From contig CAXXLZ010000001.1 of assembly GCA_963675595.2 (NCBI GenBank), forward strand, positions 1,344,001-1,408,000: a stretch of DNA of 64,000 bases, in the 5' to 3' direction. The DNA comes from Thermodesulfobacteriota bacterium. GTDB lineage: Bacteria; Desulfobacterota; Desulfarculia; JACQYL01. Numbering within the stretch: the first letter of the stretch is position 1; every line of letters begins with the position of its first letter. Below, one piece after another: positions 41-3,676 of this stretch. A program made the translations under genes and the position numbers. The notes beneath the pieces were generated by a model. It did not search any database. It saw only the letters and a list, made by a program, of their open reading frames with translations, and was not told the DNA's origin.

Positions 41-184
41 ATGACTTACTCGACATTGAAGGAAGCCGGGATTTCGACCCTTCGGGCCTTGGAAAAGAAG
101 CGGATTACCATCGACGCGCGGCTTTGGTGGTTCATGTTGGGCGGTAGCGTGGTGGGCTTGTTGATGTTGTGGGTAGGGAAATGA
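41..184 (+). CDS. Small phage protein with a C-terminal transmembrane segment (47 aa)
   Basis: Read by hand: MTYSTLKEAG...LWWFMLGGSVVGLLMLWVGK*. Upstream AAGGA; stop overlaps the MTase ATG (ATGA at 181-184). Confidence 0.6.
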   Translation: MTYSTLKEAGISTLRALEKKRITIDARLWWFMLGGSVVGLLMLWVGK

Positions 185-1317
185 TCCGAACCGCCCACTT
201 GTTCGCCGGTGCCGGGGGTGGAATTTACGCCGATTTAATCCTCGGGCACAAGCCCGTGCTGGCCGTCGAAAATAATCCGGAATGCTGCAAGATGCTTGAG
301 GAGCGAAAACGTGAAGGATGGTGGCCCGAGCTCGACATTCAATGCTGCGACATCCGAGAATTTGACTTCAGCCCCTGGGCCGGACGAGTGGATCAAATCG
401 CAGCGGGCTTCCCTTGCCAGGATATTTCGTATGCTGGAAGCGGTGATGGAATACGAGGATCACGAAGCGGCCTCGTCTGGGAGGTCTTCCGCGCAATCGA
501 CGCTATTCGACCTCGATGGGTTTTCCTCGAAAACAGCCCCGCAATACGGACCAAGGGACGGCGGGAAATCATTGCCGCCTTGGTGGAGAAAGGATATTCC
601 TGGCGAGACGGAACGCTTGCCGCGGCTCATGTCGGAGCGGGCCATCTCCGCAATCGCTGGTGGCTGCTTGCTGCCGACGCTCTGCGCCAGAGATCACAAA
701 AACAGCGGCGGCATGGTTTTAACGCCAAGAGGGCAGACGCGCCTGCCCACCGCATTAAAACATATGCTGCCCACGATCACGGCAAGCATGGAAACATGGG
801 CGGACTTTGTTCAGGCGCAATACCACAGCTCGAAGAGGCCGGATTATCAGATAGCGAAGCTACTCCCGACGCTGTTAGCATCAAGCGGGGGAAGAACTCT
901 TCCGCTAGGCACAACGATAACCGGTATGGCCCCGGATGGCAAAAAGCGGACGGTGGGATTGGACCAAGCCATCAAGATGTTGCCGACGCTGACCGCATCG
1001 GACGCCACGGGAGGATCCGGGACTTCGCCGAACCGGAAAGGCGGCCCGAATCTGCGGACGATGCTGCCGACTCTTTGCGCGACCGACTACAAATTGCCAT
1101 TCAACGAGGAGGGCTATCAGAGAGCGAGTCAAGAACGGTCGAGGCCGTTGCGCGATACACTGCCACATACTACTGGTCACCGCCTGACGCCGGGGTTCTG
1201 CGAGTGGTGGATGGGGTTCCCGCTCGGAGGCACCGCATACAGGCGTTAGGCAACGCCCAGGTGCCTCTACAAGCGGCCATGGCGTGGATATTGTTGATGA
1301 GGGGAGGAATCCATTGA
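181..1317 (+). CDS. DNA (cytosine-5) methyltransferase, catalytic 'alpha' polypeptide (motifs I-VIII and X; motif IX absent from this frame)
   Basis: Motif I HLFAGAGG, motif IV GFPCQDIS, motif VI LENSP, motif VIII HLRNRWW, motif X QALGNAQVP. Start placed at ATG 181 by coupling to the upstream stop. Confidence 0.92.
   Translation: MIRTAHLFAGAGGGIYADLILGHKPVLAVENNPECCKMLEERKREGWWPELDIQCCDIREFDFSPWAGRVDQIAAGFPCQDISYAGSGDGIRGSRSGLVWEVFRAIDAIRPRWVFLENSPAIRTKGRREIIAALVEKGYSWRDGTLAAAHVGAGHLRNRWWLLAADALRQRSQKQRRHGFNAKRADAPAHRIKTYAAHDHGKHGNMGGLCSGAIPQLEEAGLSDSEATPDAVSIKRGKNSSARHNDNRYGPGWQKADGGIGPSHQDVADADRIGRHGRIRDFAEPERRPESADDAADSLRDRLQIAIQRGGLSESESRTVEAVARYTATYYWSPPDAGVLRVVDGVPARRHRIQALGNAQVPLQAAMAWILLMRGGIH
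296..1249 (+). CDS. Nested alternative-frame 'beta' polypeptide of the C5-MTase (TRD-like repeats plus motif IX); true start uncertain
   Basis: 317-codon open +1 frame wholly inside the MTase gene. Ends in RLTPGFCEWWMGFP (motif IX-like) and has five (M/L)LPT(L/I)xA repeats. Same layout as the M.EcoHK31I alpha/beta pair. Confidence 0.8.
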   Translation: MRSENVKDGGPSSTFNAATSENLTSAPGPDEWIKSQRASLARIFRMLEAVMEYEDHEAASSGRSSAQSTLFDLDGFSSKTAPQYGPRDGGKSLPPWWRKDIPGETERLPRLMSERAISAIAGGCLLPTLCARDHKNSGGMVLTPRGQTRLPTALKHMLPTITASMETWADFVQAQYHSSKRPDYQIAKLLPTLLASSGGRTLPLGTTITGMAPDGKKRTVGLDQAIKMLPTLTASDATGGSGTSPNRKGGPNLRTMLPTLCATDYKLPFNEEGYQRASQERSRPLRDTLPHTTGHRLTPGFCEWWMGFPLGGTAYRR

Positions 1318-2386: not shown

Positions 2387-2766
2387 CGGCCCAAACAAAC
2401 GACGAAACTCTCGACTCCCTGGGTAAAAATCTGACCGCCGAACAGGTTGCGGCGCATTTCGGCTTGAAACCGAGATTTGTTCGTGAGCATTATGAGGCAT
2501 TCGGCGGTACGAGGATCTCGAAGCGTGTGCTCATTTTCCCCGAAAAGGAGGTTTATCGTGCCCTATCAATACACCACACCCAAGGGAGAGAAGAAATGGA
2601 AGGGACAGGTCGTCAAGGACGGTCGCCGCGTCGTTCAGACTTTCAAGACGAAGGCGAAGGCCGTGGAATGGGAGGTGCTGACGAAGAAGCTGATGGACGA
2701 CGGAGAAGAGCCGTTTACCGAAAACCGAGAGCGACAAAGGATCCGCACGGGATATTCTCTCGGTGA
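2383..2766 (+). CDS. Excisionase-like helix-turn-helix protein
   Basis: LTAEQVAAHFGLKPRFVRE wHTH-like motif directly upstream of, and overlapping, the integrase; similar to 59436-59759. Confidence 0.75.
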   Translation: MTAQTNDETLDSLGKNLTAEQVAAHFGLKPRFVREHYEAFGGTRISKRVLIFPEKEVYRALSIHHTQGREEMEGTGRQGRSPRRSDFQDEGEGRGMGGADEEADGRRRRAVYRKPRATKDPHGIFSR

Positions 2767-3676
2767 ATGGGCAACGGACTATCTGGACTACTTCCGAGAA
2801 CACGGCCGTGAAGCTACATACAAGGAGAAGCAGGCGGTGTTTCGGCACTTCTTCAAAACGTTCGACAAGGACATGCCTGTTCGGTCGCTGACCAAGAAAG
2901 ACGTGCTTCGCTACATGACGGTGCAACACAAAATCAGGACCGGTAACGCGGTGAACAAGGACGTGAGGAAGAACCTGAAGGCGGCTTTCAATTGGGCGAT
3001 TCGGTATGGAGTAATCGACCCTATGCCAAACCCGTTCGAAGTGGATCGCCTCCCCGAAGAGCGTCACGACCGGTATGTTCCCCCGGAGGCCGACTTCTGG
3101 AAGGTCTACCAGGTGGTTACCGGCCCGGCAGACCGGCTCTTACTGTTGGCCTACATCTACACCGGCGCCCGAAGGACGGAGCTCTTCACCCTTCGGTGGG
3201 TTGATGTGGATTTCGCCGGGAGCCGAATCAGGCTGTGGACCAACAAGCGAAAGGGTGCCCGAGAGTACGACTGGATTGAGATGCGCGAAACCCTGTTTAA
3301 CTCGCTGCTTGCGCACAAACAGGAAAGTCGTTCCGAATGGGTGTTTCCGAATCCGAAGACCGGGCTTCCATACACCGATCGTAAAAAGTGGTTGGCGGAA
3401 AGGTGCGCGGAAGCCAAGGTCCGCCCCTTCGGCTTCCACGCGATCAGGCATCTTACGGCGTCCATTCTGGCGTCGAATGGGGTGCCCGTGATCGCCATTC
3501 AAGAGATTCTTCGGCACCGGAATTCTCGGACGACCGAACGATACCTTCACAACCGGTTCGACATGCGATCCGCGTTGAAAGTCCTTGAGGGCGGAAAACC
3601 CCAGGAAGAACCCTCGAAAAACCCTCCAACCCAAACCGTAGGTACATACCCTCTAAGGGTATTGTCAAAAACTTGA
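2558..3676 (+). CDS. Tyrosine recombinase/phage integrase
   Basis: Catalytic motifs TGARRTE, FHAIRH, ILRH, TERY. AAGGAGG RBS before GTG 2558. Confidence 0.95.
   Translation: MPYQYTTPKGEKKWKGQVVKDGRRVVQTFKTKAKAVEWEVLTKKLMDDGEEPFTENRERQRIRTGYSLGEWATDYLDYFREHGREATYKEKQAVFRHFFKTFDKDMPVRSLTKKDVLRYMTVQHKIRTGNAVNKDVRKNLKAAFNWAIRYGVIDPMPNPFEVDRLPEERHDRYVPPEADFWKVYQVVTGPADRLLLLAYIYTGARRTELFTLRWVDVDFAGSRIRLWTNKRKGAREYDWIEMRETLFNSLLAHKQESRSEWVFPNPKTGLPYTDRKKWLAERCAEAKVRPFGFHAIRHLTASILASNGVPVIAIQEILRHRNSRTTERYLHNRFDMRSALKVLEGGKPQEEPSKNPPTQTVGTYPLRVLSKT

Follow-up and report, generated by a model that had tools for sequence, protein, structure and literature searches.

The 64,000-nucleotide (nt) stretch of Thermodesulfobacteriota DNA analyzed here (positions 1,344,001–1,408,000 of contig CAXXLZ010000001.1, assembly GCA_963675595.2; hereafter the window) carries near its start a C5 cytosine methyltransferase (MTase) gene, the conserved motifs of which are divided between two reading frames of the same DNA. 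Judging from sequence comparison, we consider it highly probable that this locus encodes a two-chain C5 cytosine MTase, with two overlapping frames on the same strand specifying the large domain (alpha, frame 1) and the small domain (beta, frame +1). Both frames are kept open, and both carry the expected motifs. Coordinates are those of the window, and features lie on the forward (+) strand unless noted otherwise.

Organization of the Methyltransferase Locus

The alpha open reading frame (ORF) runs from an ATG at 181 to 1317 (378 amino acids, aa) and encodes the C5-MTase large-domain chain; the frame-1 ORF is listed as 169–1317, and an in-frame GTG at 169 would give 382 aa. The first-pass annotation, prepared from the sequence alone, had placed motifs I, IV, VI, VIII, and X in this frame, and all five are read there. 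The catalytic domain (181–690) comprises motif I (FAGAGGG, 202–222, alpha aa 8–14), which binds S-adenosylmethionine (AdoMet), motif IV (GFPCQDIS, 406–429, aa 76–83), which holds the PCQ cysteine of the catalytic Pro-Cys, motif VI (ENSP, 529–540, aa 117–120), and motif VIII (RNRWWLLA, 649–672, aa 157–164). Motif X (GNAQVPLQAAMAW, 1249–1287, aa 357–369, with GNAQVP at aa 357–362) follows in the same frame. In an alignment of alpha homologs, invariant columns are found in motif I (F8, G10, G12, and G13), motif IV (P78 and C79), motifs VI and VIII (E117, N118, R157, and R159), and motif X (G357, Q360, and V361). Running the PF00145 hidden Markov model (HMM) on both frames, a check that the first-pass annotation had proposed, returned a match to alpha aa 3–170 only (profile positions 2–166 of 324, E 6.2e-28; 98.6 bits against a cut-off of 22, and so above the curated threshold) and nothing in the +1 frame. 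The TIGR00675 model (dcm, NCBIfam) scored alpha at 72.6 bits, under its curated cut-off of 100.65, and did not match beta, while phrog_363 matched alpha aa 2–370 (E 3e-51). Full-length alpha homologs share 44–54% identity at 96–100% coverage, and among solved chains M.HhaI comes nearest (E 1.4e-5).

Between motifs VIII and X, alpha reads through approximately 190 residues that match nothing, and neither a Pfam scan nor alignment to the single-chain enzyme gp66 of the Mycobacterium phage DillTech15 placed a target recognition domain (TRD) or a motif IX within alpha. Much of this stretch is a linker (691–1080) that represents the wrong-frame reading of the beta TRD and is variable, gap-rich, and predicted to be disordered. 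Alpha identity in the homolog alignment falls to 0.09–0.16 in most windows over residues 166–330, with many gaps. The predicted fold comprises a confident alpha/beta domain at aa 1–182 (pLDDT, the predicted local distance difference test, ~70–97), predicted disorder at aa 183–289 (pLDDT 30–45), and two predicted helices at 292–327 which, like the motif X helix, are of moderate to low confidence. The earlier description of this stretch as low-information sequence lacking a motif IX is borne out by the absence of matches and the predicted disorder.

The beta frame is open from stop to stop over 239–1249 and ends in a TAG (1247–1249) that shares one base with the first codon of motif X. It contains a TRD (668–1180) with five LPTL/LPTI repeats and inserts between them, followed by motif IX (RLTPGFCEWWMGFP, 1181–1222). 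The first-pass annotation had reported this frame as an ORF of 317 codons (296–1249, from a TTG at 296) ending in a motif IX-like element; the ORF is listed as such and the element is present. The extent it gave needs amending, as TTG 296 is simply the first start codon in the ORF, GTG 311 is a better candidate, and the frame is open from 239.

Family models recognize beta poorly. Pfam returned no family at E ≤ 1 for either the 317-aa or a 206-aa +1-frame product, and there was no NCBIfam or PADLOC family match; phrog_1008, labeled 'DNA methyltransferase', did match (E 2.9e-9). With tblastn, beta matched annotated phage methylases in four records (E 1e-5 to 4e-4), including gp53 of the Gordonia phage Upyo and DillTech15 gp66, and the same type of search against plasmids gave no match. 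ESM Atlas matches were to viral 'hypothetical protein' clusters only. A total of 106 beta homologs have been called as proteins, which, except for two frame chimeras, have no Pfam family. A beta profile matched 8574 cluster representatives at E ≤ 1e-3, a number that falls to 2577 at 1e-10 and to 201 at 1e-30; part of these will be TRDs of split or single-chain enzymes. We noted two proteins (P0131 and P0193) that start in the alpha frame and switch to the beta frame within or just after the motif VI region; these are probably frameshifted contigs or decayed copies, and their PF00145 labels could mislead.

Predicted alone, beta folds with a mean pLDDT of 57.5, a poor result that may be compatible with a subunit needing its partner and DNA, and that proves nothing. 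One segment (beta aa 24–55, 380–475) is predicted as a very confident helix (pLDDT 88–95), although selection on beta is not seen there in the codon statistics. Motif IV of alpha overlaps this segment, and the conservation that it imposes may mimic a conserved piece of beta; we therefore give the helix no weight, and caution is needed when folding overlapped frames. PDB profile searches with beta returned transcription activator-like effector (TALE) proteins weakly (whole-sequence E 4e-5 to 1e-2), with per-domain E-values of at least 22; we take this for repeat resemblance rather than homology. The resemblance runs through '..ALxxxxxLLPxLC..'. Relatives differ in how many LPTL/LPTP modules they have, from ~1–2 (Kluyvera/E. 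coli type) up to the 5 of the window. The repeats may be a modular helix-loop recognition repeat or a mere repeat resemblance.

Conservation of the Layout and Colinearity with Single-Chain Enzymes

We drew 80 loci from each of three sources (species genomes, viral contigs, and metagenome contigs), added four phage records, and classified 245 sequences (244 loci and the window) using motif regular expressions. In 154 of the 245, alpha ran unbroken as far as motif X and motif IX was confined to the +1 frame. A further 46 had motif X in the alpha frame, with no motif IX picked up by the expressions; a motif-IX HMM placed one in the +1 frame for 40 of these. The rest comprised 20 'other' loci, 16 in which alpha stops after motif VIII, eight that run off their contig, and one single chain. 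Three of the 'other' loci (L011, L043, and L204) have the same layout and were missed by the motif X pattern, and three more (L026, L197, and L177) look degraded. The layout of the window, in which alpha reaches motif X and the +1 frame holds motif IX, is thus seen in 194 of 237 classifiable loci. Motif IX lies in the alpha frame in two loci only, DillTech15, a true single chain, and L188, a metagenome contig with additional internal phase shifts. Two of the three observations that the first-pass annotation had named as refuting its reading concern homologous DNA: stops in the +1 frame of homologs, which are absent across the TRD-to-motif-IX stretch, and homologs with one continuous frame, which amount to one true single chain among the 237.

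Within the 154 loci, alpha is open for a median of 112 codons on its way to motif X, and the spacing between motifs IX and X is 18–26 nt in all but three (151/154). By their titles, genomes with the layout include Betaproteobacteria, Gammaproteobacteria, Verrucomicrobiota, Planctomycetota, Fibrobacterota, Lentisphaeria, Patescibacteria, Sulfuricurvum, and others. It is also found in E. coli prophages and in cultured phages of Salmonella, Klebsiella, Acinetobacter, Pseudomonas, Ralstonia, Vibrio, Stenotrophomonas, and Microcystis. In nine Streptomyces loci (L037, L058, L062, L064, L068, L076, L080, L083, and L084), alpha stops a few codons past motif VIII and a +1-frame ORF with TRD and motif IX follows, a split form like that of actinophage gene pairs.

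The single-chain enzyme DillTech15 gp66 (447 aa, one frame) provides a template against which the two frames can be read. Its aa 1–193 align with alpha 2–175 (33% identity, E 3e-21) and its aa 222–404 with beta 120–306 (31% identity, E 6e-10), which places the TRD homolog within beta at aa 120–290, while alpha 176–300 has no significant match to gp66. In gp66, motif X comes after motif IX in the same frame; in the window, it lies in alpha. Given that the two halves of gp66 align with alpha and then with beta, with motif X after them, alpha and beta together are colinear with a single-chain enzyme.

Selection on the Two Frames

Shuffling synonymous codons (5000 shuffles per frame) gave the chance that one frame of the window would be open given the protein encoded in the other. 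With alpha shuffled, the +1 frame over 311–1246 stayed open in 8 of 5000 shuffles (mean of 4.9 stops), and with beta shuffled across the TRD-to-motif-IX stretch, the alpha frame over 673–1248 stayed open in 69 of 5000 (mean of 3.5 stops); as shuffles so seldom stay open, chance openness of either frame is unlikely. Across the 154 loci, shuffled alpha gave a mean of 3.9 stops in the +1 frame (probability of an open frame: median 0, mean 0.024), and with beta shuffled, the part of alpha that separates motifs VIII and X had 3.4 stops on average (open-frame probability: median 0.017, mean 0.064).

Codon-position variability (4000 pairs) and frame-wise identity (2500 pairs at 30–60% alpha identity) show where along the gene each protein is under selection. 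Alpha position 3 is the most variable over residues 1–165, with values of 0.61–0.69 at residues 1–105; it still leads at residues 106–150, lowered to 0.50–0.55 (vs. ~0.65). At residues 331–345, which correspond to motif IX, the most variable position is instead alpha position 1, i.e., beta position 3 (0.37 vs. 0.24 and 0.26), and beta identity reaches 0.74 with alpha at 0.52 and a beta null, obtained by synonymous resampling, of 0.32. Alpha position 3 leads again at residues 361–375 (0.68). Selection therefore runs from alpha to beta and back to alpha along the gene, a switch that follows the division of the enzyme into a large domain, a small domain, and motif X. At residues 106–150, beta identity is 1.45–1.73 times the null, but the +2 control is also raised (1.37–1.39 times), and close pairs showed no beta-level constraint over these residues.

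Several points weigh against the two-chain reading. Because alpha-type peptide patterns were used to collect the loci, the layout fractions apply to this clade and not to C5 MTases in general. The set of 154 loci was defined partly by alpha being open; a fairer count is that alpha is continuous to motif X in 194 of the 217 loci that have motif IX in the +1 frame. Only 96 of 154 loci have no stop in the +1 frame over the first ~96 alpha codons, with 42 expected (for the +2 frame, 1 of 154). Selection on beta is undetectable at alpha residues 1–105, with an observed/null identity of 0.96–1.23, the same as the +2 control. In close enterobacterial pairs, changes over residues 1–165 are mostly synonymous in alpha and non-synonymous in beta. 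Finally, the beta of the window reads GFPLGGT in place of the usual GW..GWT, and the tail that relatives have is missing from it.

We also noted an open frame on the minus strand (905–1432, 175 codons) that spans the dual-coding region; it is probably a by-product of stop avoidance in two plus-strand frames combined with a 59% G+C content.

Candidate Start Sites of Beta

Near the alpha start, the beta frame of the window is closed twice. A small hydrophobic ORF (8–184, 58–60 aa, ending in ...GGSVVGLLMLWVGK) is read in the beta frame upstream and ends in a TGA (182–184) that shares bases with the alpha ATG (ATGA), and a TAA follows at 236–238; because of these two stops, beta must start internally. 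The candidate codons are TTG 296, GTG 311, ATG 431, GTG 443, ATG 446, and ATG 629, of which GTG 311 is the most likely. It is preceded by GAGGAG (298–303) with a 7-nt spacer, giving a favored start site at 298–313 and a product of 312 aa. The entry for the window genome in the protein collection (P0121, 312 aa) starts at this codon, and the corresponding profile position (43) also starts six other cluster representatives. Starts at ATG 431, ATG 446, and ATG 629 are possible; ATG 629 is not favored and has no Shine–Dalgarno motif, and the equivalent methionine starts some called homologs (P0186–P0189). Also in favor of GTG 311, five relatives (L006, L007, L013, L014, and L169) have an ATG at +130/+133.

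In the relatives, the beta frame is closed on its upstream side by a stop whose median position is 7 nt after the inferred alpha start; it falls within 0–59 nt in 79 of 154 loci. In 104 of 153 loci, a beta-frame start codon is found between −29 and +39 nt of the alpha start, and in 62 of these it is accompanied by a Shine–Dalgarno motif. E. coli PT62 illustrates the arrangement: GGAGG is followed after 5 nt by the GTG of alpha (245 aa), the ATG of beta (251 aa) comes 4 nt later, and the beta TGA shares bases with the ATG of the next gene. In L007, L009, and L012, a beta-frame GTG stands 5–8 nt before the alpha start, after GGAGG or AGGAG. The N-terminal part of beta that overlaps the alpha catalytic domain looks like a loosely constrained leader, the role of which seems to be that of reaching a start codon. 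Since no amino-acid selection on beta was seen across this part, we have left the start as a set of candidates.

Proposed Enzyme and Alternative Explanations

In the enzyme we propose, alpha (181–1317) would form the whole large domain, with the AdoMet-binding and catalytic motifs I–VIII and with motif X at its C-terminus, these parts being joined by a disordered tether that is the wrong-frame reading of the beta coding sequence. Beta (+1, probably from GTG 311 to 1249) would form the small domain, comprising the target-recognition repeats and motif IX. The two would associate non-covalently and rebuild the usual bilobed enzyme, as the subunits of the heterodimeric MTase M.EcoHK31I do. In many relatives, beta would start 4–8 nt from the alpha start, and one Shine–Dalgarno site would serve both chains. 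The rebuilt enzyme would act on phage or integrated-element DNA, methylating it, and would probably serve as protection from host restriction without a partner endonuclease. That both chains are made, bind each other, and are both needed, as well as the codon at which beta starts, we infer from the nucleotide and protein comparisons above.

A different way of joining the motifs would be a single polypeptide made through two programmed frameshifts, +1 after motif VIII (~668–672) and −1 after motif IX (~1223–1248). The composite reading would be exactly colinear with the single-chain DillTech15 gp66, the gap between motifs IX and X is short and fixed (18–26 nt in 151/154 loci), and frameshift bypass has reportedly been seen in laboratory variants of M.HaeIII (PMC3812077), which also counts in favor of this explanation. 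We nonetheless regard it as improbable, as it needs neither alpha to be open through the TRD nor beta to be open upstream, and both are open beyond the shuffle expectation. There is also no zero-frame stop after the putative +1 site, only 3 of 154 loci have a canonical X_XXY_YYZ heptamer in the motif IX to motif X interval and these have no sequence in common, two successive shifts would give a very low yield, and beta-frame starts with Shine–Dalgarno motifs stand beside the alpha start in 62 of 153 loci.

We give slightly less credence to an enzyme of the M.AquI type, in which one −1 shift at the end of beta would fuse it to motif X, the active pair would be the alpha N-terminal domain and this fusion, and the alpha tail would be irrelevant. 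The phage gene pairs Upyo gp54/gp53 and gp79/gp78 of the Mycobacterium phage Twister do hold the TRD, motif IX, and motif X in one separate chain, and alpha stops after motif VIII in 16 of 245 sequences. Such a scheme leaves the openness of alpha (a median of 112 codons to motif X) unexplained; moreover, no conserved slippery site is present, and beta in the window ends at a TAG abutting motif X.

That alpha alone is a minimal MTase, with beta an accessory protein that modulates, for example, specificity or activity, seems to us just as doubtful as the M.AquI-type scheme. Pipelines do annotate alpha as a complete 'DNA cytosine methyltransferase', and residues 292–327 are predicted as two helices with moderate confidence, yet alpha contains no match to a TRD or motif IX and the homologous elements are in beta. 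The most conserved element of the locus, motif IX with its flanks, lies in beta, which makes alpha acting alone unlikely, and the characterized precedent, M.EcoHK31I, requires both chains according to the reports cited below.

Lastly, it is scarcely credible that the gene is a single-chain one in which the assembly carries two frameshift errors or mutations that compensate for each other: P0131 and P0193 switch from the alpha into the beta frame and some metagenome contigs have extra phase shifts or stops (L188, L026, and L197), but 194 of 237 independent loci, cultured phages and complete genomes among them, have the same two phase changes at the same places, and this recurrence in homologous DNA excludes compensating errors in the window assembly.

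Genomic Context and Annotation

The gene is an orphan MTase of an integrated element, as the first-pass annotation had proposed, and is present once in the genome. Upstream lie genes for a Bro-N protein, a primase (Toprim/DUF5906), a PolB-exonuclease-like protein, an AAA protein, and a RecD2-like helicase, and downstream a tyrosine integrase (2477–3676, PF00589 E 1.3e-20) marks the end of the element. A Pfam scan of 12 neighboring ORFs, covering ~18 kb upstream and 2.4 kb downstream with small ORFs left out, found no endonuclease gene; all 12 were replication or integration genes or had no match. Seven unnamed neighboring ORFs had no PADLOC match. M.EcoHK31I is the methylase of a restriction–modification enzyme pair; unlike it, the window gene has no endonuclease found near it.

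We noted a 127-aa ORF (2383–2766, +) with no Pfam family that overlaps the listed integrase start. The real start of the integrase probably lies downstream of TTG 2477, and the small ORF might be an excisionase-type gene.

The expectation that standard gene callers would report one chain holds in each case we compared. PGAP annotates alpha alone in E. coli PT62 and Prodigal calls alpha alone in the Stenotrophomonas phage S72, while the protein collection holds only the beta ORF (P0121) for the window genome, with no 100%-identical alpha among the matches. As gene callers emit one of the two chains, the putative specificity subunit is missing or 'hypothetical' in most annotations. Two further annotations of relatives are of note. 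In E. coli PCP07014 (L248, 1196–1957), PGAP labels the alpha homolog a pseudogene with an internal stop. In the Salmonella phage S9-5 (L251, 1–300), the gene annotated as an adenine methylase runs into the dual-coded cytosine MTase gene and ends 4 nt inside it, an overlap that suggests a methylase pair in one operon.

Significance and Comparison with Known Systems

Long same-strand overlaps with conserved, recognizable domains in both frames are rare in bacteria and phages, and one characterized MTase of the overprinted kind turned up in the literature we searched. We found no account of a widespread overprinted C5-MTase family in that literature, with subscription journals and REBASE lying outside the search. 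If the two-chain reading is true, the arrangement is a common design in cultured phages and E. coli prophages, and thousands of these enzymes would have been treated as short, TRD-less MTases with their specificity chain missed. The assignment of methylation motifs to genes would be affected, as would predictions of restriction evasion by phages. It would also offer a natural system for studying the evolution of two proteins on the same nucleotides and the use of one ribosome-binding site for two frames.

The phage lambda genes Rz/Rz1 are a known case of nested phage genes (named in bioRxiv 10.1101/2022.06.14.493971). They resemble the window in having one gene within another on the same strand, with products that act together. 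They differ in the length of the overlap, which is far longer here (939 nt in the window and 734 nt in E. coli PT62), and in that both window frames encode recognizable parts of one enzyme fold.

Among phage MTases, DillTech15 gp66 has a homologous catalytic domain and the same repeat-type TRD and motif IX, in the same order as the window, but with everything in one frame and with neither an N-terminal beta leader nor a disordered tether. The M.AquI type, represented by Upyo gp54/gp53 and Twister gp79/gp78, has two chains with motifs I–VIII apart from the recognition part, as in the window, and the beta homologs of the two phages likewise carry LPTP/LPTL repeats and motif IX. The Upyo genes are adjacent and those of Twister overlap by 50 nt. 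In these enzymes, alpha ends after motif VIII and motif X is in the TRD chain; in the window, alpha reads ~190 codons on to its own motif X, ahead of which beta terminates.

The closest known case is M.EcoHK31I, a heterodimeric C5-MTase with the specificity YGGCCR (Lee, Kam and Shaw 1995, via PMC2836561 and PMC3404938). Its beta chain is nested in the alpha gene in another frame, and activity requires both chains (PMC2836561 and PMC3404938). The beta of the window (311 or 296 to 1249) likewise lies wholly inside alpha (181–1317) in frame +1, alpha has motifs I–VIII along with X, and beta has motif IX. M.EcoHK31I beta works without its first 42 residues, and internal methionine codons can start it (PMC2836561); this dispensable N-terminus parallels the unconstrained beta leader of the window family. 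The first-pass annotation had credited M.EcoHK31I beta with both a TRD and motif IX, which departs from the published description, where a 'predicted' TRD is assigned to alpha and motif IX alone to beta (PMC2836561 and PMC3404938). The window differs from M.EcoHK31I as published in that its TRD homolog is in beta, the two being compared by description, and its alpha linker is predicted to be disordered and is unconserved. Unlike in M.EcoHK31I, the overlap in many relatives of the window gene takes in the entire gene, and one ribosome-binding site is common to both chains.

On balance, and with less assurance than for the locus itself, we favor the view that these genes belong to a large, cross-phylum phage and prophage clade of C5 MTases, which would be encoded as two same-strand genes overlapping nearly in full, for 250 to >300 codons. 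The large domain (motifs I–VIII with motif X) and the small domain (TRD and motif IX) would be separate polypeptides, often started 4–8 nt apart from one ribosome-binding site. M.EcoHK31I would then be the one characterized member of the clade, and the placement of its TRD in alpha would be wrong. What is new relative to M.EcoHK31I is the TRD in beta, the absence of an endonuclease found nearby, and, in many relatives, whole-gene overlap with paired starts. There is a real chance that the window family might redefine this closest known case.

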